The translations under genes and the position numbers were made by a program. Below the pieces are notes generated by a model that saw only the letters and a program-made list of their open reading frames with translations, was not told the origin of the DNA and searched no databases. A stretch of DNA of 64,000 nucleotides from a virus: the IMG/VR virus record IMGVR_UViG_3300045988_182490; one strand, 5' to 3'. Position 1 is the first letter of the stretch. The number at the start of each line of letters is the position of its first letter. Positions 3,382-59,884 of the stretch are shown in pieces.

Positions 3382-3551
3382 TAAGAACCGCGCATAGATT
3401 GGAAATATGAAATCATGACCACTGGATTAGGAAATTATCTTAATTTAGTGGTCTTTTTTATGAATGAAAGAAAAATTTTTGTGCAGAAATTTCTATAAAA
3501 CTTATAATCTGTCATAATAAATATATAAGTATTTAACACAATCTTTGATAT

Positions 3552-3624
3552 GGGGCTGTAGCTCAGTTGGGAGAGCGCTTGTCTTGCGAACAAGATGTCG
3601 TGGGTTCAAATCCCACCAGCTCCA
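3552..3624 (+). tRNA. tRNA-Ala (UGC)
   Basis: GGGGCTGTAGCTCAG start, anticodon loop CTTGCGA, GGTTCAAATCC T-arm, 7-bp acceptor. Confidence 0.8.
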
Positions 3625-3630
3625 CTATAT

Positions 3631-3705
3631 GGCCGATTCGACTAGATGGTTTAGGTCACGAGGCTTTCAACCTCGTAGCAGCGGGTTCAAGTCCCCTATC
3701 GGTCA
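3631..3705 (+). tRNA. tRNA-Glu (UUC)
   Basis: anticodon stem CGAGG/CCTCG, loop CTTTCAA; acceptor GGCCGAT/ATCGGTC. Confidence 0.7.
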
Positions 3706-3776
3706 CTGCAGAATAATCTGCGATACAATTTAAAACAATGGGACTTATGGAACCAGGCACTCCGGGAGTCCCAGAT

Positions 3777-3849
3777 GCAGGTGTAGTATAACTGGTCAGT
3801 ACGGTGGCTTGCCAAGTCATAGACGCGGGTTCAAATCCCGTCGCTTGCT
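3777..3849 (+). tRNA. tRNA-Gly (GCC)
   Basis: loop TTGCCAA, GGTTCAAATCC T-arm, acceptor GCAGGTG/CGCTTGC; flanked by 13-bp direct repeat GAACCAGGCACTC. Confidence 0.7.
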
Positions 3850-3951
3850 TTAATTCTGAACCAGGCACTCAGAATTTAAAAAATCTATTACAGGAGAAAA
3901 TAATATGAACAAACGATTTAGCAAGGATAAAACCGAAAGTAATTTTATCCA

Positions 3952-4023
3952 GCCTCGTAAGCTAACTTGGTAGAAGCGCCAGTCTGAAAAACTGGAGGAT
4001 CGGATCGTAACCGAAACGAGGCA
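3952..4023 (+). tRNA. tRNA-Phe (GAA)-like, atypical T-arm (possible pseudo-tRNA)
   Basis: acceptor GCCTCGT/ACGAGGC, D-arm AGCTAACTTGGTAGAAGC, loop CTGAAAA; T-loop ATCGTAA non-canonical. Confidence 0.35.
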
Positions 4024-4027
4024 TTAT

Positions 4028-4102
4028 GGCTGCATCGCCTAGCTGGTTATGGCACCTCCCTGTCACGGAGGAATAACACGGGTTCAAGTCCCGTTGCAGT
4101 CG
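4028..4102 (+). tRNA. tRNA-Asp (GUC)
   Basis: loop CTGTCAC, GGGTTCAAGTCCC T-arm, acceptor GGCTGCA/TGCAGTC. Confidence 0.75.
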
Positions 4103-4109
4103 CTATTGT

Positions 4110-4185
4110 GCATGTGTGGTCCAGTGGTTTTGGACACCTGCCTTCCAAGCAGGACATCACGCGGGTTCGAATCCCGTCACATGCT
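4110..4185 (+). tRNA. tRNA-Gly (UCC)
   Basis: loop CTTCCAA, GCGGGTTCGAATCCCGT T-arm, acceptor GCATGTG/CACATGC. Confidence 0.75.
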
Positions 4186-4254
4186 CTATATCAAAAGTAA
4201 AGGAGATGAAAAAATATGCCAGACTATTATTATATGGGAACTGAATATTATTAA

Positions 4255-4342
4255 CGGCAGGTATGCAAAGGGCTGAAGCAAAGTGTCTGTAAAACACTGA
4301 CCCACGCGGTAAACATTGTGAGTCCGAATCTCACCCTGCCGA
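4255..4342 (+). tRNA. tRNA-Tyr (GUA), long variable arm
   Basis: loop CTGTAAA, variable arm about 14 nt, T-loop TCCGAAT. Confidence 0.6.
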
Positions 4343-4347
4343 CTTCT

Positions 4348-4430
4348 GGGCAGGTATCCCGTAATTGGCAGCGGTGCAGTCTGTAAAACTGTTGGCTTCG
4401 GCTTCTGGCGGTTCAAGTCCGTCTCTGCCC
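4348..4430 (+). tRNA. tRNA-Tyr (GUA)-like second copy, long variable arm
   Basis: acceptor GGGCAGG/TCTGCCC, loop CTGTAAA, GGTTCAAGTCC. Confidence 0.55.
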
Positions 4431-4442
4431 ATTAAAAAATAT

Positions 4443-4521
4443 GTCCTGATACGCAAATTGGCAAAGCGGCCACGCTAAGGACGTGGTGAATTGTTTGTGG
4501 GTTCGACTCCCACTCAGGATA
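4443..4521 (+). tRNA. tRNA, isotype unresolved (anticodon loop CTAAGGA)
   Basis: GGGTTCGACTCCCAC T-arm, acceptor GTCCTGA/TCAGGAT; anticodon ambiguous. Confidence 0.4.
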
Positions 4522-4528
4522 TTAAGAT

Positions 4529-4602
4529 GTCCATGTGGTGCAACTGGCAGACACGCTGGTTTCAGAGACCAGATGTTGGAAGTTCGAATCTTCTCATGGG
4601 CA
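4529..4602 (+). tRNA. tRNA with Leu anticodon (CAG) but short variable arm
   Basis: Leu-like D-arm GTGCAACTGGCAGAC, stem CTGGT/ACCAG, loop TTCAGAG, 5-nt variable region. Confidence 0.5.
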
Positions 4603-4608
4603 CTTTAT

Positions 4609-4681
4609 CGGGATGTGGCGCAATTGGTAGCGCGCGTGATTTGGGATCATGAGGCTGCAGGTTCGAGACCTGTCATTCCGA
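4609..4681 (+). tRNA. tRNA-Pro (UGG)
   Basis: loop TTTGGGA, GCAGGTTCGAGACCTGT T-arm. Confidence 0.7.
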
Positions 4682-4687
4682 CTGTAT

Positions 4688-4761
4688 GCATCAGTGCCGC
4701 AACTGGCAGACGGGACCGGCTCAAACCCGGTTTTCTATGGGTTCGAATCCCTTCTGGTGCA
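4688..4761 (+). tRNA. tRNA with Leu anticodon (CAA) but short variable arm
   Basis: paralog of 4529 tRNA; stem ACCGG/CCGGT perfect, loop CTCAAAC. Confidence 0.5.
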
Positions 4762-4776
4762 TTTGTTTTAAAATTT

Positions 4777-4848
4777 TGGTTTGTAGCTCAATGGTAGAGC
4801 AACCGGCTGTTAACCGGTAGGTTGTGGGTTCAAGTCCCACCATTCCAG
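4777..4848 (+). tRNA. tRNA-Asn (GUU)
   Basis: TAGCTCAATGGTAGAGC D-arm, loop CTGTTAA, GTGGGTTCAAGTCCCAC; acceptor has 2 mismatches. Confidence 0.55.
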
Positions 4849-4852
4849 CTAT

Positions 4853-4936
4853 GGAGGCTGTGGCCGAGTTGGTTAGGCAGCAGATTGTGGCTCTGCGGAA
4901 GTAATTCCTACGTGGGTTCGAGCCCCACTGGTCTCC
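4853..4936 (+). tRNA. type-II tRNA (Ser-like D-arm TGGCCGAGTTGGTTAGGC), anticodon reads GUG; identity uncertain
   Basis: long variable arm with GGAA/TTCC hairpin, GTGGGTTCGAGCCCCAC T-arm. Confidence 0.45.
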
Positions 4937-4950
4937 CTGAAATCAAATAT

Positions 4951-5022
4951 GCCGCTGTAGCACAATGGCAATGCACCTGCTTTGTAATCAGGGGATTAAG
5001 GGTTCGAGTCCCTTCTGCGGCT
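4951..5022 (+). tRNA. tRNA-Thr (UGU)
   Basis: loop TTTGTAA, AAGGGTTCGAGTCCCTT. Confidence 0.6.
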
Positions 5023-5024
5023 TA

Positions 5025-5095
5025 TAGGCGGTTAGGCTAGAGGTAAACCGTGCGGTTCTGAACCGTTAGACACCCGTTCGATTCGGTTACTGTCT
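5025..5095 (+). tRNA. tRNA-like, possibly Gln (CUG); acceptor stem not resolved
   Basis: loop TTCTGAA between CGG/CCG, T-loop TTCGATT; could not pair a clean acceptor. Confidence 0.3.
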
Positions 5096-5100
5096 GCTAT

Positions 5101-5172
5101 GTCCCCATAGCTTAATGGATAGAGTTTTCGGCTACGAACCGAAAGATTGGCGTTCGAGTCGCCATGAGGACA
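5101..5172 (+). tRNA. tRNA-Arg (ACG)
   Basis: stem TTCGG/CCGAA, loop CTACGAA, TGGCGTTCGAGTCGCCA. Confidence 0.7.
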
Positions 5173-5178
5173 TTAAAC

Positions 5179-5252
5179 GCCTGTGTAGCTCCAATTGGCA
5201 GAGCGTCTATCTCGTAAGTAGAGGGTTGCAAGTTCAAATCTTGTCACAGGCT
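5179..5252 (+). tRNA. tRNA-Thr (CGU)
   Basis: perfect acceptor GCCTGTG/CACAGGC, loop CTCGTAA, GCAAGTTCAAATCTTGT. Confidence 0.7.
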
Positions 5253-5265
5253 TTATAAAAATATT

Positions 5266-5335
5266 GTGGTGTATTTCAATGGTAGAAAGACCGTCTGATG
5301 AGCGGTTAATATCAGTTCAATTCTGTTCACCACAA
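5266..5335 (+). tRNA. tRNA-Ile (GAU)
   Basis: acceptor TGTGGTG/CACCACA, loop CTGATGA, T-loop TTCAATT. Confidence 0.55.
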
Positions 5336-5339
5336 CTAT

Positions 5340-5412
5340 GCTGATATAGCTCAACTGGGAGAGCACATGCCTTACAAGCATGGGGTTACAGGTTCGAGTC
5401 CTGTTATCAGCA
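5340..5412 (+). tRNA. tRNA-Val (UAC)
   Basis: TAGCTCAACTGGGAGAGC D-arm, loop CTTACAA, ACAGGTTCGAGTCCTGT. Confidence 0.8.
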
Positions 5413-5415
5413 TTT

Positions 5416-5490
5416 GCGGGTGAGTGGAACGGATTTACCATGCAGGGTTCATAACCCTTGCGATACCAGGCTTCGACTCCTGGACCCGCT
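5416..5490 (+). tRNA. tRNA-Met (CAU)
   Basis: loop TTCATAA, T-loop TTCGACT. Confidence 0.55.
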
Positions 5491-5492
5491 AC

Positions 5493-5564
5493 TCCAGGGT
5501 AGTATAGCGGCGAGTACGGCCGGTTCATGCCCGGTAGACCCGAGTTCGATTCTCGGCCTTGGAA
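5493..5564 (+). tRNA. tRNA-Met/Ile2 (CAU), second CAU tRNA
   Basis: stem GCCGG/CCGGT, loop TTCATGC, CCGAGTTCGATTCTCGG. Confidence 0.6.
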
Positions 5565-5645
5565 TCAAAAAATATTGATAAATGAGGAGAAAACAATCAT
5601 GAAACGAAAACAGTTATATAAGCGATTATCAAAGTTATAATGTAT

Positions 5646-5729
5646 GCATCCGTCGCCTAATTGGTATGGCACCAGACTTTTAATCTGGCGGAATTACTTT
5701 CCATGCGAGTTCGAGTCTCGTCGGGTGCA
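5646..5729 (+). tRNA. type-II (long-arm) tRNA whose anticodon reads UUU; identity uncertain (Leu-like body)
   Basis: stem CCAGA/TCTGG, loop CTTTTAA, 17-nt variable arm with GGAA/TTCC hairpin, GCGAGTTCGAGTCTCGT. Confidence 0.45.
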
Positions 5730-5751
5730 CTGACACTGTATGTGTATCCGC

Positions 5752-5824
5752 GGGTATGTAACTCAAGTGGCAGAGTAGCGGCCTCTTAAGCCGAAGGTTG
5801 CAGGATCATGGCCTGTCATGCCCA
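5752..5824 (+). tRNA. tRNA-Lys (CUU)-like with degenerate T-loop
   Basis: acceptor GGGTATG/CATGCCC, TAACTCAAGTGGCAGAGTA D-arm, loop CTCTTAA; T-loop ATCATGG. Confidence 0.45.
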
Positions 5825-5828
5825 TTAT

Positions 5829-5902
5829 GCGCCAGTAGCCCAATCGGCAGAGGCACAGGGTTTAAGCCCCTGTCAGTATCGGTTCGAATCCGATTTGGCG
5901 TA
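5829..5902 (+). tRNA. tRNA with anticodon UAA (Leu-type) and short variable arm
   Basis: perfect anticodon stem CAGGG/CCCTG, loop TTTAAGC, ATCGGTTCGAATCCGAT. Confidence 0.5.
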
Positions 5903-6221
5903 CTTTTTCAATATATTCAACAACAATTTATGAAAATTGTAAGAAAGGATAACCAATATGCGTAACACAAACATATGTAAAAGACAATCCAATAGTTCAT
6001 GGTCAGAGAGTAGACATAATAAGAAGATGTACTGCTTTATTTGTTGATGCAATTTTTTTGCATAACAATATTTGGCATTAGTTATTTTAGTAACAGCATC
6101 TTCTGATAAAAACATTATCGAAGGATGCTGTTTTTTGTATATAAAATTTCTGCATGAAAATTTATTAAAATCATTCATATTAATAATAAAAATAAAAAGT
6201 GCATTTTTTATAATTTTATAT

Positions 6222-6295
6222 GGGCATATAGTTTAATGGTTTAGAATACGAGATTCCAAATCTCGAAGATGTGGGTTCGAATCCTACTGTGCCTG
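6222..6295 (+). tRNA. tRNA-Trp (CCA)
   Basis: stem CGAGA/TCTCG, loop TTCCAAA, GTGGGTTCGAATCCTAC. Confidence 0.7.
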
Positions 6296-6325
6296 TTATA
6301 AGTCAATATTTAATAGACAGAAGGG

Positions 6326-6844
6326 ATGGTCGTAATGACAAATAATAATTGGATATCTCCAACATACGGACATTTAATTTTGGAAGAAATCCCTCAATAT
6401 ATCCGTGAATATTACAATAAAATGAAACAATATGATACAAATATACGAATTACGATTGGTACAGACTCTCAAAATTTCAACTATACAAAAGAAGTAAATG
6501 TCATTGCTGTTATCTGCGAGGGACATGGAGGCATATTCTTCTATAAAATCAATAATAGAGACCGTATTCTGGATGTAAGGACAAAATTGCAGATGGAAAC
6601 CGGAGACTCTTTGGAAATAGCAGATAAGCTGATTCATTTGTTAGAAGCAGAAGAGTACGAAGAAGTCTTTCTAAATACTACTTTTTCTATCCATATTGAC
6701 GCAGGATATTCTGAAAAAGGGAAAACCAAAGATTTGATACCTGAACTTGTCGGATGGGTAAAAGGAAGTATTTCAAATTGCGAAGTATATGTAAAACCAG
6801 ACAGCTACGTAGCATCTGGAATCGCTGATAAAATATCAAAATAA
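6326..6844 (+). CDS. YkuK/DUF458 family RNase H-like protein
   Basis: 172 aa; ITIGTDSQ motif and overall pattern of DUF458; embedded inside tRNA array. Confidence 0.5.
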   Translation: MVVMTNNNWISPTYGHLILEEIPQYIREYYNKMKQYDTNIRITIGTDSQNFNYTKEVNVIAVICEGHGGIFFYKINNRDRILDVRTKLQMETGDSLEIADKLIHLLEAEEYEEVFLNTTFSIHIDAGYSEKGKTKDLIPELVGWVKGSISNCEVYVKPDSYVASGIADKISK

Positions 6845-6867
6845 CAGGGGGTTCAAAAGCCCCAAAT

Positions 6868-6958
6868 GGAGCGGTGCCTCAATTGGTACAGGACCCGGTT
6901 GGAAGCCGGGCATGTCGTGTCAATCCACGCTTTGAGGGTTCAAGTCCCTCCCGTTCCG
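6868..6958 (+). tRNA. tRNA-Ser (GGA)
   Basis: stem CCCGG/CCGGG, loop TTGGAAG, long variable arm, GAGGGTTCAAGTCCCTC. Confidence 0.65.
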
Positions 6959-6963
6959 CTTTT

Positions 6964-7055
6964 GCTGTGATGGCTCAACTGGTACAGCACTGGTCTTGAA
7001 AACCGGCATGTCGGGTGAGATTCCCGCTTTCAGGGTTCGAATCCCTGTCACAGCG
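6964..7055 (+). tRNA. tRNA-Ser (UGA)
   Basis: perfect acceptor GCTGTGA/TCACAGC, loop CTTGAAA, long variable arm, CAGGGTTCGAATCCCTG. Confidence 0.75.
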
Positions 7056-7059
7056 CTAT

Positions 7060-7133
7060 GCCTCCGTAGTCTAATGGTTAGTGACGTCAGCTTCTCACGC
7101 TGAAGATGCGGGGTTCAAGTCCCCTCGGAGGTT
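7060..7133 (+). tRNA. tRNA-Glu (CUC)
   Basis: stem TCAGC/GCTGA, loop TTCTCAC, GGGGTTCAAGTCCCC. Confidence 0.6.
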
Positions 7134-7138
7134 CTTAT

Positions 7139-7212
7139 ACGGGCGTAGTCTAATTGGACAAAACAACGGTCTTCTAAATCGTACCTTGCGGGTTCGAGTC
7201 CCGTCGTCCGTA
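7139..7212 (+). tRNA. tRNA-Arg (UCU)
   Basis: loop CTTCTAA, GCGGGTTCGAGTCCCGT, acceptor ACGGGCG/CGTCCGT. Confidence 0.7.
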
Positions 7213-7219
7213 GTATTAT

Positions 7220-7295
7220 GGCATCGTGGTCGAGTGGTCTAAGGCGCCTGTCTGCAAAACAGGTTTTACCGTGGGTTCGAATCCCACCGATGTCT
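7220..7295 (+). tRNA. tRNA-Cys (GCA)
   Basis: stem CCTGT/ACAGG, loop CTGCAAA, GTGGGTTCGAATCCCAC. Confidence 0.65.
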
Positions 7296-7443
7296 TTGCA
7301 TTTAAGCTGTGCGAAGCAGATTAGTCACCTGTTTCTATTCAGTGTATATGCAAAAAGCCCGTGCTAAACGGTATTTCAGTCGAAATTGACTAACGGCTGC
7401 GGTATTCGTGATAAACCTGCCAATCTGCGGGGCACGGGAGTCT

Positions 7444-7534
7444 GCCAGTGTGGCTCAATTGGTACAGCACCTGCTTCGAACACAGGCAAGCCGGCATTTA
7501 TGTCGACGTACAGGTTCAAGTCCTGTCACTGGCG
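7444..7534 (+). tRNA. tRNA-Ser (CGA)
   Basis: perfect acceptor GCCAGTG/CACTGGC, loop TTCGAAC, long variable arm, ACAGGTTCAAGTCCTGT. Confidence 0.65.
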
Positions 7535-7540
7535 TTTTTA

Positions 7541-7609
7541 GTCCATTAGCATAGCGGTTAATGCACTGGGCCTTGACCCGGGGACTGCGGTTCGAATCCG
7601 CAATGGGCC
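7541..7609 (+). tRNA. tRNA, possibly Gln (UUG); short
   Basis: TGCGGTTCGAATCCGCA T-arm, acceptor GTCCATT/AATGGGC, anticodon region CCTTGAC. Confidence 0.4.
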
Positions 7610-7621
7610 GTTTATATTTTT

Positions 7622-7713
7622 TGCCGTGGTGGCTCAAATGGTAAAGCAGCGGATTGCTAATCCGCCATCTCGGAGTAAAATCCGGTTTCAGGGTTCGAGT
7701 CCCTGTCACGGCG
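7622..7713 (+). tRNA. tRNA-Ser (GCU)
   Basis: stem GCGGA/TCCGC, loop TTGCTAA, long variable arm, CAGGGTTCGAGTCCCTG. Confidence 0.7.
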
Positions 7714-7718
7714 TTTAT

Positions 7719-7747
7719 AGAGAAGTCCAATAGGACTTCTTTTTTGT
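7719..7747 (+). terminator. intrinsic terminator closing the tRNA array
   Basis: AGAAGTCC-AATA-GGACTTCT hairpin followed by TTTTTTGT. Confidence 0.6.
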
Positions 7748-7800
7748 ATATCTAAAATCTGACATATTAAATGTATCAATAAAGAAAAAAGGAGATTAAT

Positions 7801-7995: not shown

Positions 7996-10059
7996 ATGAC
8001 ATTAAAAGAAAAATTGGATCTTTGGGTAAAAATAACGGGTGTAAATCCAAGTGAAAAGAATAAAAAATATACGATCTATATGGATGGCCGTTTATCTGAT
8101 TATGACATTCAAAAGATGAATGAGCGGATTATGAATTCGTTAAAATACGATGAAACCGGATTATTTGCAGATACTTATCTAAAAATCTATCTTAAGAAAT
8201 TCATGAACGGAAAGAATGTTTCCTTCATGGAATTAATGGAAAATCCTGATCTCCAAGAGTATTTAAAGGATGTCAGAACATTATATGATTCCGTAAATAA
8301 TAGTAATGCAGAAGAAACAGTGCTGAATAATATGAAAGCAGCCATGGACTTTTATGATCTTCCGTCAGATAAATTAACATCGGAAGATGTTATGAGTGTT
8401 GTGTCGTCTGCTAAAAACTGCATGAACGGAAAATTGAAGTTGGATCAAATAACAAAGGGCTCATTTGCTGATGATGAGTTTAAAGGATCTCTTGATATCT
8501 ATATGTACAAGAGTATTGGCGATGTTATCCGTTTTGCTGCAAAAGGAGACATCTCAGGTATTTCGATGTGCTACATTTGTGATGATAAGAATCTTGAACA
8601 GAGTTTTTTTGCTTTTATAATCAGAAATGGAGAAAATCTGTATATATTGTCTGACCGTCCTATTTATAAACATCCACTACAGGCTAAAATGTCCAGGTGT
8701 CCGGGGAGAGATATGAGTGAAAGAATAGAAGGTAATTATTTCCCTTATAATTCTATCTCCGGTATCGATGTTAGTGATTTATGGGGCAGCGGAAGATATG
8801 GTGTATCCAAAAATGATGACAATATGGCTCCTGCTGTAAATAACGACTGCGTAAGAACAAAAATCGGAACGTTTGCTTCTTTAAATCAGGATGAAGCATT
8901 CTGGGCTATCTATATGTTTTCTTTGATTAAAGATCGGTTTTATAAGGAACATATTGAATTAGAGGATCTTTCTTTCTGTGAAGCAAATATTATTTATGAC
9001 AGGCTGGAAGAAAATGAAAAGAATGAGATTGCATTAAGAACAACTATTCCATATATTGTAGTGAAACCTGTTGAAAATCCAAAGAATATTGAAATGGAAT
9101 ACGGTAGAAAATCGGAACACCTGTATGATTATCTCATTGATAGATATGTTAATAAAGTAGACACAAATGTTTTTAATCTTATCAAACAAAGAGATAAGAC
9201 GTTACCTATGCTTACCGATAATAAATCAACTTGCTTCCGTCAGTATGAAACACTTGATTTAAGTTCGATGCGGACAGAAAAAGAACTCATTTATGATCAG
9301 CAATGGTTAGCAAGATATAACATGGCCGTATCCATAGGCGGTATGTTGAATTCTGATTTCGATAAAAATAAAAACCGAGTTATATCTGAAATGCTATCTA
9401 TGATTAGAAATTCGGCTGGGTATATTGTTAATCTCATTTTAACCAAAAAGTTTGATGGAAAAATCGATTCTTTTGAATATGCAGCCAAAAATATATCATA
9501 CAGAGATATTACTTTAGGTAAGGAATACGATGACGATTATAAGAGCAAATATCGTTGTTTCTTTACAGGGAAAAATCCAGCCGTCATCATTTCCTTTAAC
9601 GTTAAAACAGCCGAGGAACTTGCAACTCTGTGTGGAGTCGATATTAAAAGCATCCCGATAGAGCTGCAACATTATCACAAGAATAAACGTTGTTGCGGAA
9701 ATAGCATTCTTGATAACCTCGATCCATTGGATTGGGCTTTATCTGATCCATATGATGATCTTTCATTCTATTTTCATATAATTTTAAGTGGTAATGAAAT
9801 GTTAAGGCGCCAGGCAATAGCGGGTGTACAGCAGAATGCTTTTTGGAAGGAACAGATACCGTTATGTTATTTTGAAAAATATAGTTTTGATAAAGATCGT
9901 AGCTATATGAATAAAAAGGAGGCTAATTTAGAAAAAGAAAAATATTATAATACATGTCTTGGAATATTCAGAGGCTATGACGAAAACTATAAAGATAAAC
10001 TGCTAAAGAAATGCGAAAAATGTAAATATCACAGAGTCTCTAAAAATATGGAAGCATAA
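7996..10059 (+). CDS. large hypothetical protein
   Basis: 687 aa; AAGGAG RBS; no motif recognised. Confidence 0.6.
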   Translation: MTLKEKLDLWVKITGVNPSEKNKKYTIYMDGRLSDYDIQKMNERIMNSLKYDETGLFADTYLKIYLKKFMNGKNVSFMELMENPDLQEYLKDVRTLYDSVNNSNAEETVLNNMKAAMDFYDLPSDKLTSEDVMSVVSSAKNCMNGKLKLDQITKGSFADDEFKGSLDIYMYKSIGDVIRFAAKGDISGISMCYICDDKNLEQSFFAFIIRNGENLYILSDRPIYKHPLQAKMSRCPGRDMSERIEGNYFPYNSISGIDVSDLWGSGRYGVSKNDDNMAPAVNNDCVRTKIGTFASLNQDEAFWAIYMFSLIKDRFYKEHIELEDLSFCEANIIYDRLEENEKNEIALRTTIPYIVVKPVENPKNIEMEYGRKSEHLYDYLIDRYVNKVDTNVFNLIKQRDKTLPMLTDNKSTCFRQYETLDLSSMRTEKELIYDQQWLARYNMAVSIGGMLNSDFDKNKNRVISEMLSMIRNSAGYIVNLILTKKFDGKIDSFEYAAKNISYRDITLGKEYDDDYKSKYRCFFTGKNPAVIISFNVKTAEELATLCGVDIKSIPIELQHYHKNKRCCGNSILDNLDPLDWALSDPYDDLSFYFHIILSGNEMLRRQAIAGVQQNAFWKEQIPLCYFEKYSFDKDRSYMNKKEANLEKEKYYNTCLGIFRGYDENYKDKLLKKCEKCKYHRVSKNMEA

Positions 10060-33240: not shown

Positions 33241-34569
33241 ATGAAGATCATTACTTCCTACAATGTACGTCTGAAAACAGAATACATTTCAGCCATGAAG
33301 CAGACCGTAATGCTTTATACAGATGCAGTCTGTTTCTATATGGATGTCATTCTGGAGGAGTGGAACACGTTTGCAGGCTTGAGCACCAATGAAGCCGTTC
33401 TGTGTGCCGAGAGGTTATCCCATGCCACCACAGCACATCCGGCTCCGAAGTATGACTTTGATGGACGATTTCCAAAGTTCCCATGTTACCTGCGCAGGGC
33501 TGCTATCAGTAGTGCATTTGGTAAATGCTGTGCTTACATCAGCAGTCTTGCTAACTGGGAAAAGCTGGATCCTGCAGTCAGAAAGAAAGCTCCCGGCAGG
33601 CCGCGTATTACCATGGAGATGCCGGCTTTCTACAAAGGAAACATGTTTGTGCGGACCGGTGACTATACCGCAAGACTGAAGTTATTTTACCGGAATGACT
33701 GGCAGTATGTGGACGTCGGCCTGCGTAAGTGTGATGTGGATTATTTATTACGACACTGTGGATCCCGGAAGGAATCCTCACCGGTGCTGCGGCATTGCCA
33801 CAAGGTATGGGAACTGTGCTTTTCTTATGAAGAGGACCGGATGCTCAATAAGACACCGGTTTCCGGCCAACGAATCCTTGCTGTGGATCTTGGCATCCAT
33901 AATCCCTGTACCTGCTGCGTTATGACTTCGGATGGTACTGTCCTGGGGCGGCATTTCCATAAAGCCCCGGTAGAAGAAGACTCTCTGAATCATAAACTCG
34001 GCAAGATCAGGAAGGCTCAGCGCCAAGGCAGTCAGCGCATACCTAAGAAATGGGCTTCCATCCATGGTTCGAATACCAGTATTTCCCGGAAGACTGCGGA
34101 TTTCATTATCAGCATGGCCGTACTCTATAACGTAGATGTCATCGTTATGGAGTATCTGGATACTTCAGGAAAGAAACACGGCTCCGGTAAGCAGCGTCTG
34201 CATATGTGGCGTAAGGCAGCCATCTGGAAGCAGACAGAGCTTCAGGCCCACAGACTCGGGATCCGTGTCAGCCGGGTATGTGCCTATAATACCTCAAGAC
34301 TGGCATTCGACGGATCCGGAAGTGTACTGCGCGGCCGGGAAGCAGATCTGGGTTCCTACAGTATCTGCCAGTTCCGGACCGGCAAGATATATAACTGTGA
34401 CCTGAATGCATCCTACAACATAGGAGCTAGATATTTCATAAGAGAACTCTTAAAACCTTTTTCTGAAAAGGAAAAGTTGCCCGTCCTGGCAAAAGTCCCG
34501 GACTGTGGTAAGAGAAGCACCTGCACCCTGGCTTCGCTCATTAGACTGAATGCGGTTCTGGCAGCGTAA
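33241..34569 (+). CDS. tnpB: TnpB (OrfB_IS605) RNA-guided nuclease
   Basis: 442 aa; RuvC-I LAVDLGIHN, RuvC-II VIVMEYLD, Zn-finger Cys cluster, RuvC-III CDLNASYNIG. Confidence 0.85.
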   Translation: MKIITSYNVRLKTEYISAMKQTVMLYTDAVCFYMDVILEEWNTFAGLSTNEAVLCAERLSHATTAHPAPKYDFDGRFPKFPCYLRRAAISSAFGKCCAYISSLANWEKLDPAVRKKAPGRPRITMEMPAFYKGNMFVRTGDYTARLKLFYRNDWQYVDVGLRKCDVDYLLRHCGSRKESSPVLRHCHKVWELCFSYEEDRMLNKTPVSGQRILAVDLGIHNPCTCCVMTSDGTVLGRHFHKAPVEEDSLNHKLGKIRKAQRQGSQRIPKKWASIHGSNTSISRKTADFIISMAVLYNVDVIVMEYLDTSGKKHGSGKQRLHMWRKAAIWKQTELQAHRLGIRVSRVCAYNTSRLAFDGSGSVLRGREADLGSYSICQFRTGKIYNCDLNASYNIGARYFIRELLKPFSEKEKLPVLAKVPDCGKRSTCTLASLIRLNAVLAA

Positions 34570-44319: not shown

Positions 44320-45101
44320 TCTATATTACAGGAGATATTCATGGAGATCCCACAAGATTTTCCAAAGAAGCGTTTCCAGAACAATCAAAAATGACAAAAG
44401 AGGATTACGTTATTGTCTGTGGAGATTTTGGACTCGTATGGGATCAAATGGAATCAAGAACAGAAGAATATTGGCTTAACTGGCTTCAGAATAAGCCGTT
44501 CACTACATTATTCGTGGATGGTAATCATGAAAATCATGATAGATTGGATGCTATGCCAGTATCTGAATGGAATGGAGGAAATGTTCACTTTGTAAGACCT
44601 AATGTTATTCATTTAATGCGAGGCCAGGTATTTACTCTTTGTGAAAAAACATTCTTTACGTTTGGAGGAGCATCTTCCCATGATATCCAGGATGGTATTT
44701 TGGATCCTGATAATTATCAGTACGGAATTAAAGATCCTCTATTCAAAGAAGATAAAAAGAAGTTAGATGATAGAAGAGCCATGTACCGTATCAAGAGAGT
44801 ATCCTGGTGGGAACGTGAGCTTCCTAGCGAACAGGAGATGTCTGAAGGAATCGAAAATCTTAAGAAATACGGAAATAAAGTGGACTATATTATTTCCCAT
44901 AGTCCGTGCACCAGTGATATGTTCCTAATGGGCGGTAAAGGCATTTACCAGCCGGATATTATTTCGAACTATCTGGAAGAAGTAAGAGCCACAACGGAGT
45001 ATAAGAAATGGTATTTTGGACATATGCATATCAATAAGCAGGTGTCTATGCAGGATATTTGCTTGTATGAGCAAATTTTATTTGTCCCTACTTGTCAATA
45101 A
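44316..45101 (+). CDS. calcineurin-like metallophosphoesterase
   Basis: 261 aa; GDIHGD, GDFGLVWD, GNHENHD motifs; stop codon lies within first bases of IscB element copy 1. Confidence 0.8.
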   Translation: MIYITGDIHGDPTRFSKEAFPEQSKMTKEDYVIVCGDFGLVWDQMESRTEEYWLNWLQNKPFTTLFVDGNHENHDRLDAMPVSEWNGGNVHFVRPNVIHLMRGQVFTLCEKTFFTFGGASSHDIQDGILDPDNYQYGIKDPLFKEDKKKLDDRRAMYRIKRVSWWERELPSEQEMSEGIENLKKYGNKVDYIISHSPCTSDMFLMGGKGIYQPDIISNYLEEVRATTEYKKWYFGHMHINKQVSMQDICLYEQILFVPTCQ

Positions 45102-45361
45102 CCCATCACTAAAGTGACGGGCTTGTAAAAGCCCGATATTGACTAGCCTAAGTGTTTCGAACACTACGTTACGAGAGAATATATAGTCACCTGCGGATGT
45201 AATACCTAGTCTGCAGCTCTGAGGTCCGTGATTAAACAGTCCTGTTGGATAGGGACAGTGTTGCGGATATCCAAAACCTCTCATTAACATTGGCGAAGGT
45301 ATCATTACAGAGGAATGACCTCTGATTTATGTGATTTGGTTCACAGAAAGGAGTGCCTGTT
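45100..45361 (+). ncRNA. putative omega RNA (IscB guide scaffold), copy 1
   Basis: about 260-nt non-coding, GC-enriched, hairpin-rich region between IS left end and iscB start, canonical omega-RNA position. Confidence 0.6.
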
Positions 45362-46633
45362 ATGGTATATGTTCTTAACATTGACGGACAGCCGCTTATG
45401 CCCACTGACAGGCATGGAAAGGTCCGGCATCTTTTGAAAGACGGCCGGGCGGAAGTAGTAAAGCGCTGTCCGTTTACCATACGACTGTTGTATGACAGCA
45501 CGCACTATACACAGGATATCGTATTAGGTGTGGATGCCGGCAGCAAACATATCGGTTTGTCGGCCACCACAGAAACAAAAGAACTCTATGCTTCCGATGT
45601 GGAGCTAAGAAATGACATTGTGGATCTGATTTCCACACGCAGACAGAACCGCCGGTCACGGCGTAATCGTAAGATTCGTTATCGGAAGGCTCGTTTTCAG
45701 AACAGGGTATCCGGAAAGAAAAACTGGTTGGCTCCCAGTATCCGGCAGAAAGTCGATACACATATGACCGTGGTATCCAGAGTATGCATGATACTTCCGG
45801 TTACAAAGATCATCGTGGAGACAGCTTCTTTTGATATCCAGAAGATCAAGGATCCGGATATCAGTGGTACTGGTTATCAGCAGGGAGAGCAGCTCGATTT
45901 CTGGAACGTCCGGGAGTATGTATTATCCCGGGATGGTCATACCTGCCAGTGCTGCAAAGGCAAATCCAAGGATCCGGTGCTCAATGTACATCATATCGAG
46001 AGCCGAAAGACTGGTGGCGATGCTCCCAATAACCTGATCACCTTATGTGAGACATGCCATAAGAGTTATCACTCAGGTGCGGTGCAGCTGCCGAAAGCCA
46101 TCCATCGTGGCATGAGATTCAAGGATGCTGCATTCATGGGAGTCATGCGATGGAATTTCTATAACAAACTGAAGGAAATCTATGAGCTACAGGGCATTGA
46201 GATACGTATGACATTTGGGTATCTCACAAAGAATACCCGTATCCGTCATCATCTGCCAAAGGAGCATTACATAGATGCCAGGTGCATCAGCGGTCATCCG
46301 GAAGCAATACCCAGCAACGAAGTTTTCTATCAGAAGAAGGTTCGCTGCCATAACCGCCAGATACATAAGAACACTATCCTTAAAGGTGGTATCCGAAAAC
46401 GAAATCAGGCCGGCTATCTGGTAAAAGGCTTCCGGCTGTTCGATAAAGTAGCTTACAAAGGCAGAGAGTACTTCATTTTTGGACGCAGGCAAAGTGGATT
46501 CTTCGATTTGCGGAATCTGTCCGGATGCAAAGTAAACAAAGGCAGTCTCAGTTACCGGAAGATCGGATTTCTGGAACCGAGACAATACTATTTATGTGAA
46601 AGGAGAGTAATGGACACCCAGGGCTGTGCTTAA
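45362..46633 (+). CDS. iscB: IscB RNA-guided nuclease (PLMP-RuvC-BH-HNH-RuvC)
   Basis: 423 aa; PLMP (GQPLMP), RuvC-I GVDAGSKHIGLS, Arg-rich bridge helix, RuvC-II IIVETASFD, HNH CQCCKG...HHI...NLITLCETCH, RuvC-III EHYIDARC. Confidence 0.9.
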   Translation: MVYVLNIDGQPLMPTDRHGKVRHLLKDGRAEVVKRCPFTIRLLYDSTHYTQDIVLGVDAGSKHIGLSATTETKELYASDVELRNDIVDLISTRRQNRRSRRNRKIRYRKARFQNRVSGKKNWLAPSIRQKVDTHMTVVSRVCMILPVTKIIVETASFDIQKIKDPDISGTGYQQGEQLDFWNVREYVLSRDGHTCQCCKGKSKDPVLNVHHIESRKTGGDAPNNLITLCETCHKSYHSGAVQLPKAIHRGMRFKDAAFMGVMRWNFYNKLKEIYELQGIEIRMTFGYLTKNTRIRHHLPKEHYIDARCISGHPEAIPSNEVFYQKKVRCHNRQIHKNTILKGGIRKRNQAGYLVKGFRLFDKVAYKGREYFIFGRRQSGFFDLRNLSGCKVNKGSLSYRKIGFLEPRQYYLCERRVMDTQGCA

Positions 46634-46981
46634 CAGCACTCCTCCCACGACTAAAGTCACGGGTGCCCGTGCTAAGCGAATTTATGAAATATTACCTATA
46701 ATAACGAAGAGGGACAGATAGCTGTTCCTCTTTGTTATTATCTAAAAGGGATAGTATATTGGTACTTTCGATGTAAACGGGACAATAATCTGTGCCGGTT
46801 GCATAAAGGGATAATATACTATTCCTTTAAATTTATTAATTAAAGGAACATAATTCTATCACTTTCAATCATATAAGGGATATAATATTATCCTTTTAAC
46901 ATATAGCTTATAATTTTTAGAAATGATCTTTTTGTCTCTTTATCTGTCATATTAATGGTAGAAAAACAAACGGAGGTGCTT

Positions 46982-47770
46982 ATGTTAAAAGAATTACGCA
47001 GCAGATCCTTTACAAATGGAAAGGTATATGCATTAGAAACAGAGGATGGATATCCATTGGAAGTCACCGATACTTTTTTACCAAATTATACAAAGGACGC
47101 AATCAATAACAATGAAAACACACTGAAGACATATGAAGTTGGAGACCGGACCAATCGCTGGATGATTGGTGTTAGTTGTATGAGCGGCTGTCCTGTGCAT
47201 TGTAAGTTCTGCGCAACCGGAAAACTTAAAAGATGGCGTTGCTTAACAGCCGAAGAGATTGTAGCTCAGGTGGAATTTATTATCAAACAGAATCCGGAAT
47301 ATCGATTTGAAGATGCTTGGGAACATAAAATCAATTACACCAGAATGGGAGAGCCGTTCCTAAATATAGAAGAAGTAAAAAAAGCTATTCAGATGATTGA
47401 CGAAAAGTATCCAGGAACGCATCATTATATCTCTACAGTTGGATTACAGGGAAGCGATTTTAGCTGGATTAAAGACAATATTACGTTACAAGTTAGCTTA
47501 CATAGTCTTGATGAGGAAAGACGACACAATTTAATTCCTATCAGTAATCTGATGTCTATCGAAGAACTGGGCCAGATTCGGACAAATAGTAATTTAAAAA
47601 CAACTGTCAATATGACATTAGTTGACTATGAAGATTTTGACATCAATATCTTGACCAAATATTTTGATCCTAGATATTTTTTTATAAAATTAAGTCCTAT
47701 TAACGAGAACGAGATTTCTGAGAAAAATCATATGGGATCTGGTATTATCGAGAAAAGAAATTTGATGTAA
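46982..47770 (+). CDS. RlmN/Cfr-like radical SAM methyltransferase, N-terminal and core part (split gene)
   Basis: 263 aa; SCMSGCPVHCKFCATG (CxxxCxxC in RlmN-specific context), MGEPFLN, ISTVGL, VSLHSLDEERRHNLIPI align with RlmN residues about 60-320. Confidence 0.65.
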   Translation: MLKELRSRSFTNGKVYALETEDGYPLEVTDTFLPNYTKDAINNNENTLKTYEVGDRTNRWMIGVSCMSGCPVHCKFCATGKLKRWRCLTAEEIVAQVEFIIKQNPEYRFEDAWEHKINYTRMGEPFLNIEEVKKAIQMIDEKYPGTHHYISTVGLQGSDFSWIKDNITLQVSLHSLDEERRHNLIPISNLMSIEELGQIRTNSNLKTTVNMTLVDYEDFDINILTKYFDPRYFFIKLSPINENEISEKNHMGSGIIEKRNLM

Positions 47771-47968: not shown

Positions 47969-48769
47969 ATGTTACATAATCATAGAGTGTTCCGGTATCG
48001 AATTATCACGAATTTTCATTGTAATCAGAACTGTTATTTTTGCTTTCAGCCGGAAAAGCGAGAAAAGATATTAGATATTGAAAAAATGGAAGATACTATG
48101 AAAAAGGTAGGTATGTTGGAAAGAGCTACCATTATGGGCGGAGAGAGTTTACTTTTACCGAATATCGTAGATTATTTCAAAGTAGTGCATAAATATGTAA
48201 ATACAATTTGCCTGGTAACAAACGGTACGAAGTTAACTGAAGATTTGACAAAAGCTTTAGTAGAAAATGGACTGGAAGAAATGGCAATCTCTATATCTTC
48301 TAAAGAACAATATAAGGCCAGAAGAGAACAGATACTGATTGCAAAAAAGTACGTGCCTAATTTACGCATCAATCTTCCAAAATCTTGGGAGTCTACTGGG
48401 GAAAAGTTATATGAACTTGTTGATATGATTTTAGCAGATGATATCGGCGTGGTTGTATGTGAAGATCTTATGGGCAGATACAATTTAAACTATAAAAACA
48501 GCTATGAAGATCTGCTTTATGGTATGGGCGCTAAATTATTACGCAGTGATGGACATAATTTCTTCACGTTTGAGTGGAAGGGAAAAGAATTTGGGTTGTT
48601 TGGGTATCACGGAGATAAAAACGCATCCGCAGATACGGAAGAAGCCGGATACGAAAAGACAGATATTATCATTGCACCGAATTGTCATTCTGATGAACGG
48701 TATTCCCATAAAGTCTATTCTGTGTGGGAAGATTACTGCCATGATATAGGAAACCACGACTTGGCATAG
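47969..48769 (+). CDS. radical SAM domain protein (MoaA/PqqE-like core, no SPASM extension)
   Basis: 266 aa; ITNFHCNQNCYFCF (CxxxCxxC), MGGESLLL, LVTNGTKL. Confidence 0.65.
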   Translation: MLHNHRVFRYRIITNFHCNQNCYFCFQPEKREKILDIEKMEDTMKKVGMLERATIMGGESLLLPNIVDYFKVVHKYVNTICLVTNGTKLTEDLTKALVENGLEEMAISISSKEQYKARREQILIAKKYVPNLRINLPKSWESTGEKLYELVDMILADDIGVVVCEDLMGRYNLNYKNSYEDLLYGMGAKLLRSDGHNFFTFEWKGKEFGLFGYHGDKNASADTEEAGYEKTDIIIAPNCHSDERYSHKVYSVWEDYCHDIGNHDLA

Positions 48770-58236: not shown

Positions 58237-58354
58237 TTTAGGCAGCTTTGGCTGCCTTTTTTATATAAAACCGTGAAAAAGCAGACTGTATAATTGGTAT
58301 AGGATTCCATAAAAATAATGTCATATTAATTATATATAATATAAGTCAATAACC

Positions 58355-58612
58355 CATCACTAAAGTGACGGGTTTGTAAAAGCCCGATATTGACTAGCCT
58401 AAGTGTTTCGAACACTACGTTACGAGAGAATATATAGTCACCTGCGGATGTAATACCTAGTCTGCAGCTCTGAGGTCCGTGATTAAACAGTCCTGTTGGA
58501 TAGGGACAGTGTTGCGGATATCCAAAACCTCTCATTAACATTGGCGAAGGTATCATTACAGAGGAATGACCTCTGATTTATGTGATTTGGTTCACAGAAA
58601 GGAGTGCCTGTT
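58355..58612 (+). ncRNA. putative omega RNA, copy 2
   Basis: same sequence as copy 1 scaffold. Confidence 0.6.
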
Positions 58613-59884
58613 ATGGTATATGTTCTTAACATTGACGGACAGCCGCTTATGCCCACTGACAGGCATGGAAAGGTCCGGCATCTTTTGAAGGACGGCCGGG
58701 CGGAAGTAGTAAAGTGCTGTCCGTTTACCATACGACTGTTGTATGACAGCACGCACTATACGCAGGATATCGTATTAGGCGTGGATGCCGGCAGCAAACA
58801 TATCGGTTTGTCGGGCACCACGGAAACAAAAGAACTCTATGCTTCCGATGTAGAGCTCAGAAATGACATTGTGGATCTTATTTCCACACGCAGACAGAAC
58901 CGCAGGTTCCGTCGTAATCGTAAGACACGGTACCGGAAAGCCCGATTCCTGAACCGGTTATCCGATAAGAAGGACTGGTTGGCTCCCAGTATCCGGCAGA
59001 AAGTCGATACCCACATGACCGTGGTATCCAGAGTATGTAAGATACTTCCGGTCACAAAGATCATCGTGGAGACAGCATCCTTTGATATCCAGAAGATCAA
59101 GGATCCGGATATCAGTGGTACTGGTTATCAACATGGTGAGCAGCTCGATTTCTGGAACGTCCGGGAGTATGTATTATTCCGGGATGGACATACCTGCCAG
59201 TGCTGCAAAGGCAAATCCAAGGATCCGGTACTCAATGTACATCATATCGAGAGCCGTAAGACTGGCGGCGATGCTCCCAATAACCTGATCACCTTATGTG
59301 AGACCTGTCATAAGGGTTATCACTCAGGTGCGGTGCAGCTGCCGAAAGCCATCCATCGTGGCATGAGATTCAAGGATGCTGCATTCATGGGAGTCATGCG
59401 ATGGAATTTCTATAACAAACTGAAGGAAATCTATGAGCTACAGGGCATTGAGATACGTATGACATTTGGGTATCTCACAAAGAATACCCGTATCCGTCAT
59501 CATCTGCCAAAGGAGCATTACATAGATGCCAGGTGCATCAGCGGTCATCCGGAAGCAATACCCAGCAACGAAGTTTTCTATCAGAAGAAGGTTCGCTGCC
59601 ATAACCGCCAGATACATAAGAACACTATCCTTAAAGGTGGTATCCGAAAACGAAATCAGGCCGGCTATCTGGTAAAAGGCTTCCGGCTGTTCGATAAAGT
59701 AGCTTACAAAGGCAGAGAGTACTTCATTTTTGGACGCAGGCAAAGTGGATTCTTCGATTTGCGGAATCTGTCCGGATGCAAAGTAAACAAAGGCAGTCTC
59801 AGTTACCGGAAGATCGGATTTCTGGAACCTAGACAATACTATTTATGTGAAAGGAGAGTAATGGACACCCAGGGCTATGCTTAA
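58613..59884 (+). CDS. iscB: IscB RNA-guided nuclease, copy 2
   Basis: 423 aa, all IscB motifs intact. Confidence 0.9.
   Translation: MVYVLNIDGQPLMPTDRHGKVRHLLKDGRAEVVKCCPFTIRLLYDSTHYTQDIVLGVDAGSKHIGLSGTTETKELYASDVELRNDIVDLISTRRQNRRFRRNRKTRYRKARFLNRLSDKKDWLAPSIRQKVDTHMTVVSRVCKILPVTKIIVETASFDIQKIKDPDISGTGYQHGEQLDFWNVREYVLFRDGHTCQCCKGKSKDPVLNVHHIESRKTGGDAPNNLITLCETCHKGYHSGAVQLPKAIHRGMRFKDAAFMGVMRWNFYNKLKEIYELQGIEIRMTFGYLTKNTRIRHHLPKEHYIDARCISGHPEAIPSNEVFYQKKVRCHNRQIHKNTILKGGIRKRNQAGYLVKGFRLFDKVAYKGREYFIFGRRQSGFFDLRNLSGCKVNKGSLSYRKIGFLEPRQYYLCERRVMDTQGYA

Follow-up and report, generated by a model that had tools for sequence, protein, structure and literature searches.

A phage-type tRNA array carrying short-arm leucine tRNAs, long-arm lysine and histidine tRNAs, and short leader reading frames with cognate codons

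Results

A 34-gene tRNA array representing all 20 amino acids

We analyzed a 64,000-nucleotide (nt) stretch of DNA from IMG/VR virus record IMGVR_UViG_3300045988_182490, hereafter the window, which contains a dense tRNA array at 3552..7714 on the + strand, the strand to which all window coordinates below refer. At default settings ARAGORN called 33 tRNA genes, all on this strand and spanning 3552-7714, and a lowered threshold added a thirty-fourth with a CAU anticodon (5415-5492). The Rfam tRNA model matched 31 genes at its gathering score and 32 with laxer filters, under which just two were left without a match, a tRNA-Tyr gene (4255-4343) and the additional CAU gene. Together, the two programs bear out the original prediction of a 34-gene array, and they recover its unusual members at the places, and with the variable-arm anomalies, described there. 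All 20 amino acids are represented, where coverage of most had been claimed, and CCA is not encoded in any of the genes. The predicted four Ser and two Tyr genes were found, and the CAU genes, put at two or three, number two. The locus thus has the makeup of a mobile-element tRNA array, if that term is taken to mean a cluster of 20 or more tRNA genes that share one orientation and serve most amino acids. Spacers had been given as 2-10 nt; this tight packing is seen within blocks (2-14 nt), but seven gaps span 68-571 nt.

Terminator-like hairpins stand on both sides of the array. One, a 16-pair stem followed by TTTTTT (3417..3463), closes the upstream unit just before the first tRNA, and the other, also with a T-run, lies directly after the final tRNA (7719..7752). 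A third long hairpin with a T-run, read from the sequence at 6092..6138 within the array, is probably an internal terminator dividing it into two transcription units. The interval between tRNA-Trp and tRNA-Ser holds a gene for an RNase H-like protein (PF04308/DUF458; 6326..6844), which served as a marker for relatives. We recovered near-identical arrays (loci L066-L075; loci collected for comparison carry L numbers throughout) and more distant RNase H-like homologues (71-93% identity) that likewise lie inside tRNA arrays, on contigs of 84-232 kb. This DUF458/YkuK-family gene is array-embedded in every relative examined (L076-L089), mostly right after tRNA-Trp, and its product may act on tRNA precursors.

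Codon usage of the element is matched by its tRNA set, in keeping with an earlier suggestion that unusual members could be retargeted for phage codon usage: among the Leu codons, all but the rare CUA (7% of them) have a dedicated tRNA. Codon frequencies in the 60 longest + strand open reading frames (ORFs) of the window are ordinary, and all three stop codons are in use (TAA 46, TGA 7, TAG 7). Because ARAGORN also found no suppressor tRNA in the array, a change of genetic code is rejected, as the original prediction had concluded.

Leucine tRNAs with a short variable region form a widespread phage type

Three genes had been singled out as type-I Leu-like tRNAs, and the ARAGORN folds support that description. 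The genes for tRNA-Leu(CAG) (4529..4603), tRNA-Leu(CAA) (4687..4762), and tRNA-Leu(UAA) (5829..5903, with a G1·U72 pair) each combine A73 and a Leu-type D arm, with a 3-bp D stem and an 11-nt D loop, with a variable region of 4-5 nt. With that variable region and a full cloverleaf, these three are type-I tRNA-Leu genes. The fourth, tRNA-Leu(AAG) (4442..4522; Rfam 48.5 bits), also has A73 and retains a reduced, unpaired variable region of 9 nt; its counterparts in L081, L079, and L086 have 5-8 nt. In the syntenic arrays of L079 and L086, all four Leu genes are short-armed or reduced-arm. The window Leu tRNAs keep U8, A14, and G18G19. In sister strains, Leu(CAG) has had its whole anticodon arm replaced together with the variable region, as one cassette.

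A motif that admits only a short variable region, GCAACTGGCAGAC-N27-31-GTTCGAATC, occurs at 65 IMG/VR loci (68 matches), with a Leu anticodon in every one; UAG, CAG, CAA, GAG, UAA, and AAG are all represented. Pooled over all loci, these searches yielded 72 distinct short-arm Leu sequences, 71 of which have A73. Nearly all stem positions are paired in at least 92% of the sequences (one anticodon-stem position reaches 84%), and each position is filled by 2-6 pair types, which amounts to strong covariation. When a consensus of the set was used as query, 716 records matched, cultured phages included; a T5-like coliphage, for example, has an annotated 77-nt tRNA-Leu(UAA) with a 5-nt variable region and A73-CCA. 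Judged by these sequences, the short-arm Leu genes of the window belong to a genuine phage tRNA type that is widespread and has barely been described.

Leu anticodons with a 4-5-nt variable region are also known from Streptomyces coelicolor (CAA) and from mitochondria. The phage family differs from these type-I tRNAs in its own conserved D loop (GCAACUGGCAGAC), its near-universal A73, and its use of all six Leu anticodons. A short-loop tRNA-Leu(TAG) in a mycobacterial tRNA cluster has been mentioned in passing (PMC6582537). S. coelicolor leucyl-tRNA synthetase (LeuRS) charges the type-I tRNA-Leu(CAA) of the same species (PMC6614811), and for the Aquifex aeolicus enzyme, removal of the arm from tRNA-Leu chiefly reduces affinity, the key elements being A73 and the tertiary core (PMC2377443). 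We infer that LeuRS charges the short-arm Leu tRNAs of the window as well.

Lysine and histidine tRNAs carry an extra hairpin arm

Two tRNAs of class-I isotypes show the opposite change. tRNA-Lys(UUU) (5646..5730; 85 nt, A73) has a 16-nt variable region that forms an extra arm, GGAA-TTACT-TTCC, as had been claimed, and its minimum-energy structure in RNAfold is a cloverleaf with an additional hairpin. tRNA-His(GUG) (4853..4937, with G-1 at 4853) has an 84-nt body (4854-4937) and a 15-nt variable region with the arm GGAA-GTAA-TTCC. Both therefore fall within class II if a stem-loop variable region of more than 10 nt is the measure, and neither has the identity nucleotides of Ser, Leu, or Tyr. 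The GUG gene had been described as Ser-like. Its D arm is indeed of class-II type, with C11:G24, but the identity is that of His: G-1 stands opposite C73, the second pair is A2:U71, and the arm stem has 4 bp, as in Lys(UUU), whereas each of the array's own four Ser tRNAs combines G73 with an arm of about 23 nt. The acceptor/T geometry of both long-arm tRNAs is 7/5 in the ARAGORN folds and in full-length Rfam matches, unlike the 8/4 or 9/3 geometry of allo-tRNAs. This geometry, together with discriminators and arms unlike those of Ser tRNAs, leaves mischarging with Ser and membership among the allo-tRNAs unsupported.

The long-arm forms recur in diverged relatives, where the arm still makes a hairpin. 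The loop of the His arm is GCAA in L073 and L085 and GAAA in L077/78 on an unchanged arm stem, so a GNRA tetraloop is preserved; L077 has in addition a compensatory change from A2:U71 to U2:A71, and G-1:C73 is found in His of all gut lineages. The His arm is a derived feature, since other relatives (L079, L086, L088, L084) carry ordinary His genes of 72-75 nt. An 88-nt long-arm His with a different arm is present on IMG/VR contig L163. For Lys(UUU), the arm loop is the sole difference between sister strains. The L086 gene agrees fully in the acceptor, D, and T arms and has a variable region of 7 nt, with compensatory change at two anticodon-stem pairs, while arms of other sequence that still form a hairpin occur in L088 (GTTG-GGAA-CAAC) and in IMG/VR L134 (GGAAC-ATA-GTTCC). 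The D loop of Lys(UUU) is not of Leu type, and its body is closest (75%) to phage tRNA-Tyr genes.

Across the collected loci we found 37 distinct long-arm tRNAs with anticodons other than Leu, Ser, or Tyr, in a sample that is biased, having been fetched by motif searches, and that contains many related sequences. Asn(GUU) accounts for nine of these sequences and Ile(UAU) for six; Lys(UUU) is represented several times, and the set also includes Thr(UGU), Pro, Gly, Glu, Arg, Cys, Trp, and Met. Where the arm ends in a tetraloop, that loop is GNRA in 13 of 16 cases, against 1 in 32 by chance. Discriminators mostly suit the anticodon: U1:A72 and G73 are present in all nine Asn, U73 in Cys and Gly, and A73 in Lys. 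The set shows that the long-arm Lys and His of the window are not isolated accidents.

Several individual cases stood out. The combined variable and T arms of His (4893-4929) resemble those of a T4-type tRNA-Leu (GGAAUGAUUUCC…; 86% over 37 nt, E = 0.06), which hints that arms move between tRNAs by recombination. Five long-arm Ile(UAU) genes from IMG/VR (L015:2088-2182, L039:155-245 and 9154-9243, L119:313-403, L152:358-452) share a 7-nt arm loop, C[AC]GAT[AT]A, that resembles a second anticodon loop showing GAU, the normal Ile anticodon, and could act as a decoy for isoleucyl-tRNA synthetase. A 96-nt tRNA-Pro(UGG) with an 8-bp extra arm and A73 recurs at the IMG/VR loci L114:3732-3827, L126:6033-6128, L132:6252-6347, and L146:802-897. 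A 74-nt gene listed as Ser(UGA) in L185 is a possible short-arm Ser. The 'tRNA-Thr(gta)' of a Microbacterium phage was set aside as an annotation slip for an ordinary tRNA-Tyr.

Short ORFs with cognate codons precede some tRNA genes

Three of the larger gaps in the window contain short ORFs with strong Shine-Dalgarno (SD) sites, each directly upstream of a tRNA and each holding the codon that this tRNA decodes. The Phe leader (3905..3973; MNKRFSKDKTESNFIQPRKLTW) follows the SD site AGGAG, presents a TTT test codon after AAA CGA, and extends 22 nt into tRNA-Phe, where the D-loop TAG serves as its stop. The Tyr leader (4216..4254; MPDYYYMGTEYY) abuts tRNA-Tyr exactly. The Lys leader (5599..5640; MKRKQLYKRLSKL) contains AAA twice and AAG twice and stops 5 nt short of tRNA-Lys(UUU).

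Homologues occur ahead of the same tRNAs elsewhere. Tyr leaders occupy the same position in L079 (MEDYYYNHINDY) and L086 (MESYYYSLTDYY); Lys leaders (MKRK…) are found in L086, L079, L088, and IMG/VR L128; and Phe leaders read M(N/K)KRF… in L086 and L088, with diverged versions in L079 (MIRRF…), IMG/VR L046 (MRERF…), and IMG/VR L185 (MKRF…). Ile(UAU) is preceded by MKRIRI, MNKRIRI, MKRIHI, or MKRIQI in L086, L081, L046, and L280, with ATA for every Ile codon shown, and L085 has a Trp leader, MKKRW. In the Phe, Lys, Ile, and Trp families the ORF opens with ATG-(NNN)-AAA-CGA, and the cognate codon comes next; the Tyr family has a TAT-TAT-TAT run instead.

To weigh this correspondence, tRNA labels were shuffled among 59 leader-like ORFs. 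The 46 cognate residues observed compare with 19.2 ± 4.4 after shuffling and were reached in 0 of 20000 shuffles, a figure that overstates independence to the extent that the sequences are related. The Ile-leader motif has 186 database matches, three with a tRNA within 120 nt, and in all three this tRNA is Ile(UAU). Matches to the Phe-leader motif in IMG/VR are mostly chance hits in coding DNA, the real ones being only those of L046 and L185, and the lone IMG/VR match to the Tyr-leader motif was judged to be chance.

Short, SD-driven, and rich in cognate codons, these ORFs have the makeup of attenuation leaders such as trpL, pheL, and hisL, in which key codons likewise match the downstream product. 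They differ in that the downstream gene is the tRNA itself rather than a biosynthetic operon, that the ORF ends at or within the tRNA, and that no alternative terminator hairpins were found. The AUA-containing bar minigenes of phage lambda offer a further parallel. The open-access literature yielded no description of leader ORFs before tRNA genes.

Other variant tRNA genes and signs of wear

The original prediction had also listed tRNA-Phe(GAA) (3952..4023; Rfam 41.3 bits) and tRNA-Lys(CUU) (5752..5824, called by ARAGORN) as having degenerate T-loops. The loop sequences, ATCGTAA and ATCATGG, are as reported, with the usual T54/A58 exchanged for A54/T58, but degeneracy is the wrong reading: A54/T58 recurs in Phe of L084 (L084:1333) and L076 as ATCGTTA on different stems, and L086 Lys(CUU) (L086:8895) has an identical T arm with a compensatory acceptor change. 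A swap found across lineages in this way is a conserved variant rather than decay, and it is apparently a covarying exchange of the reverse-Hoogsteen pair. A Gln acceptor stem had been thought unpairable; that of tRNA-Gln(CUG) (5026..5097; Rfam 39.2 bits) does pair over 7 bp, two of them G·U, above a slightly weak T stem.

Some wear is real, yet it lies outside the classes flagged earlier. The window copy of tRNA-Gln(UUG) (7539..7611) has a 1-nt deletion in the anticodon arm, and the acceptor stem of tRNA-Arg(ACG) (5100..5173) contains a C·A mismatch; in sister strains the Arg gene is chimeric, its anticodon being ATG and its acceptor stem broken. The two tRNA-Tyr(GUA) genes have differing variable arms, and the Rfam model, silent on the first (4255-4343), gives the second (4347-4432) 30.1 bits. 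In the first, C1:G72 is common to all lineages, including L079:8008 and L086:6986, and C55 is confined to the window. The CAU pair comprises the weak, sub-default gene at 5415-5492 and one at 5493-5564 that scores 57 bits and has G37. Features of tRNA pseudogenes are thus partly present in the weak CAU gene, the first Tyr, and the window Gln(UUG), and are not found in the four Leu, His, two Lys, or Phe genes.

Two of these genes have further peculiarities. Gln(UUG) has C33 in place of the near-universal U33 (loop CCTTGAC) in five lineages with compensatory stem changes (window, L086:11149, L088:10720, L077:6039, L085:6804). The C1:G72 of the first Tyr is a first pair of archaeal/eukaryotic type, here combined with a bacterial-style long variable region and A73.

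Strain differences are cassette-like, with replacements in L067-L075 relative to window positions 4529-4603, 5100-5173, 5415-5564, and 7060-7134. Besides the Leu(CAG) segment and the chimeric Arg, a Glu(CUC) allele has been swapped between strains, and the CAU tRNAs are lost in sister strains where a 276-aa HNH_3 homing endonuclease is inserted in the array.

Outside the tRNA genes, tRNA-Gly(GCC) has a hairpin on its 5' side (3740..3772) and another on its 3' side (3854-3874), both with the 9-nt loop ACCAGGCAC. Both are kept in L086, where the second shows a compensatory stem change, and they are possibly a processing or protein-binding site. A candidate Gly leader ORF at 3747 was dropped in favor of this conserved hairpin motif. 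A 29-aa ORF (MRNTNICKRQSNSSWSESRHNKKMYCFIC; 5958-6047) lies between Leu(UAA) and the presumed internal terminator, and its L079 counterpart conserves the C-terminus (…ESRHRKMYCFIS).

The carrier element and its relatives

The window has a G+C content of about 35%, and nearly all of its long ORFs lie on the + strand. The RNase H-like protein recurs with its exact sequence in 260 sample blocks; the contigs concerned come from metagenome samples labelled as gut and from others. This marker has no relative in IMG/VR and none in plasmids, and its sole relative in the reference collection is a 30%-identical match in a 735-kb uncultured phage. No solved structure with a related sequence was found. 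Among 50,697 phage records, the array DNA has no close relatives, just scattered tRNA-length matches.

Genes on the 84-232-kb relatives encode ParA, a sigma factor, an RNA-polymerase-like domain, an integrase, UvrD, an RNA ligase, a CCA-adding enzyme, and a peptidyl-tRNA hydrolase. The window itself holds genes for HNH nucleases, DNA methylases, and SPFH, PASTA, and SLT proteins, as well as several families known from phages alone (PHROG); scans of about 30 window ORFs with Pfam, PHROG, and NCBIfam found no structural or replication hallmark. The element is probably a large mobile element of human-gut Clostridia, either a big phage or a phage-like plasmid.

IscB (RRXRR + HNH, 426 aa) is present in two copies (45094-46633 and 58345-59884), with a HEARO/omega RNA ahead of each one (142 and 140 bits in Rfam). 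The closest IscB proteins, at 65-74% identity, come from metagenome-assembled genomes of Lachnospiraceae and other Clostridia; this level of identity is suggestive of such a host, not decisive. A gene for a TnpB/Cas12f-like transposon nuclease (33241-34569) has a weak Pfam TNB domain and a PHROG transposase match, and sister strains have other OrfB_IS605 insertions near the array. Two radical-SAM proteins are encoded at 46955-47770 and 47969-48769; one has a sub-threshold match to the RlmN/Cfr RNA methyltransferases, and the other resembles prokaryotic viperin or MoaA. RlmN also methylates A37 of tRNA.

Discussion

The array is a known kind of object. Like the tRNA-rich region of T5, the arrays of mycobacteriophages, and the mycobacterial 'tRNA array units', it sets dozens of same-strand tRNAs for nearly all amino acids on a mobile element, and homing endonucleases interspersed in known phage and plasmid arrays have their parallel in the HNH_3 gene of the sister strains. 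It differs from these arrays in that all four Leu tRNAs are short- or reduced-arm, that two class-I isotypes have an added arm, that an RNase H-like gene is embedded in it, and that cognate-codon leader ORFs precede some of the tRNAs. What is new to our knowledge is the conserved, recurrent, two-way switching of tRNA class and, above all, the leader ORFs.

On balance, we lean toward reading the array as a working decoding kit of phage type, a near-complete set whose odd members keep their amino-acid identity and whose rebuilt variable arms probably evade host enzymes. The four Leu tRNAs would have lost or reduced the long arm with A73 and a D loop of Leu type retained; a short capped hairpin would have been gained by Lys(UUU), which retains A73, and by His(GUG), which retains G-1:C73. 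Cognate synthetases would still charge them, given that LeuRS, LysRS, and HisRS mainly read position 73, the tertiary core, the anticodon, or G-1, and the altered arm would block host enzymes that recognize or cut tRNAs at or near the variable region.

Evasion of tRNA-targeting enzymes, one of the options raised earlier in the form of nuclease escape, appears to be the best-fitting idea by analogy with known defense systems. An anti-defense role has been proposed for phage and plasmid tRNA arrays (PMC12803027, PMC11555353). PtuAB (retron-Eco7) and Septu cut tRNA-Tyr in its variable loop, and the loop of the phage tRNA-Tyr decides resistance (PMC12673091, PMC13096335), being the decisive element for the phage (PMC12673091). 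For MenT3, the anchoring site is the long arm of tRNA-Ser (PMC11541572). The targets of AriB are Lys(UUU), Thr(UGU), and Asn(GUU), which it cleaves between contacts that include the D loop, the cut falling at positions 40/41 (PMC12409363); long arms in our collected sample fall on all three of these targets. T5 tRNA-Lys, -Thr, and -Asn facing the AriB nuclease of PARIS, and T5 and SP15 tRNA-Tyr facing PtuAB of retron-Eco7, likewise keep decoding and change the site that the nuclease reads. Those tRNAs do so by point changes or a longer loop within their class, whereas here the class itself is switched, with an arm added to class-I tRNAs and removed from Leu, and the window Lys retains the UAAUC site.

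A number of observations weigh against this reading. We know of no tRNA-targeting defense system in the presumed host, and of none that targets tRNA-His or tRNA-Leu via the variable region. Window Lys(UUU) reads U36-A-A-U-C-U41; position 41 is unlike the A of Escherichia coli and the added arm adjoins 40/41, but U39 and with it the AriB-recognized U36-A-A-U-C are retained (compare PMC12409363), so any protection would have to come from shape alone. E. coli LeuRS left the S. coelicolor type-I tRNA-Leu uncharged (PMC6614811), and charging of short-arm Leu is thus not guaranteed. The sampling bias among the long-arm tRNAs and the window defects (the Gln(UUG) deletion, the Arg(ACG) mismatch, C55 of the first Tyr, and the weak CAU gene) count on the same side. 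As for the leaders, RNAfold predicted no terminator/antiterminator switch between them and the tRNAs, so they are not classical attenuation; the lysines of the Lys leader owe something to a basic N-terminus common to most leader families, Tyr excepted; and the direction of any regulation is a guess.

With that caveat, the leaders suggest that ribosomes sense the supply of tRNA. Under a shortage of the cognate charged tRNA, the ribosome would stall early on the leader, and folding and processing of the precursor could proceed; under ample supply, the ribosome would reach the stop and cover the 5' half of the tRNA, hindering folding and maturation, so that tRNA output would be driven by demand. 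Tyr and Lys tRNAs are among the known targets of defense nucleases (PMC11555353, PMC12409363). A broader proposal, which we hold only tentatively, joins the two phenomena: arm class-switching would be a general phage strategy for hiding tRNAs from shape-reading enzymes with cognate charging preserved, Leu losing its arm, Lys and His acquiring one in this array, and Asn, Thr, Ile, and further isotypes acquiring one in other phages, while the leaders, as stalling sensors, would couple a shortage of charged tRNA, for example under nuclease attack, to maturation of the phage copy of the same tRNA. The open-access literature yielded no description of long-arm Lys, His, Asn, or Thr phage tRNAs.

The strongest rival, unlikely in our estimation though not negligible, is a plain codon-supply array shaped by neutral drift, in which the tRNAs function in the service of codon usage or of independence from the host, and the loss or gain of an arm is a tolerated accident with no role in evasion. 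The match between tRNA set and codon usage is what such an array would show, and the arm is not a strict requirement for bacterial LeuRS (PMC2377443). The likeness of the His arm to that of T4 tRNA-Leu fits as well, and the exchange of tRNA segments as cassettes between strains makes arm transfer by recombination plausible. Drift is harder to reconcile with the persistence of short-arm Leu over very different phages, T5-like ones included. Arms of unrelated sequence also recur on the same isotypes with their GNRA caps kept, which argues for selection on the arm itself, and strains differ, among other places, in the arm loops of Lys(UUU) and His(GUG) and in the anticodon arm of Leu(CAG), as would be expected of recognition targets.

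We consider it improbable that the odd genes are decaying pseudo-tRNAs, non-functional remnants drifting in a redundant array, as the original prediction had allowed. The damaged window copies of Gln(UUG), Arg(ACG), and the first Tyr, the failure of the latter and of the weak CAU gene against the Rfam model, and the chimeric Arg of the sister strains all look like decay, but the flagged genes behave otherwise. These classes are kept across lineages whose marker protein is just 71-80% identical; compensatory changes affect every short-arm Leu stem, the His acceptor stem, and the Lys anticodon stem; A73 and G-1:C73 are retained, the GNRA loops maintained, and the T-loop swaps conserved; and the flagged genes score 45-58 bits with Rfam.

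Least probable of all is deliberate mistranslation, with the long-arm UUU and GUG tRNAs charged by seryl-tRNA synthetase, which in bacteria reads the long arm and not the anticodon, or by TyrRS or LeuRS via A73, a discriminator common to Tyr and Leu tRNAs: the class-II-type D arm of His and the Tyr-like body of Lys would suit it, but the discriminators are of Lys and His type with G-1 present, the arm stems are short, L086 has the same Lys gene with a short variable region, the discriminators of collected long-arm tRNAs mostly fit the anticodon, the geometry is 7/5, and, with AAA making up 67% of 1150 Lys codons and CAT/CAC in normal use, miscoding would be very costly. Allo-tRNAs (Mukai 2017, PMC5389517) and nematode nev-tRNAs share with the window genes a long arm on an anticodon for a class-I amino acid, but they have 8/4 or 9/3 geometry or Leu/Ser identity and miscode, in contrast to the anticodon-matched discriminators seen here.

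If the leader mechanism is correct, translation would gauge the supply of a tRNA and act back on the very gene that encodes it, for which we know of no earlier case. In bacteria, the division between short- and long-arm tRNAs is held to be nearly fixed, with long arms only on Leu, Ser, Tyr, and Sec tRNAs. Our findings indicate that phages break this rule in both directions, repeatedly, and with amino-acid identity unchanged. The odd-arm tRNAs are natural test cases for how synthetases, modification enzymes, and defense nucleases read shape, and ready scaffolds for the engineering of orthogonal tRNAs. If the reshaped arms do block immune nucleases, they would explain the old puzzle of why phage tRNAs differ from those of the host and would constitute a new class of counter-defense.

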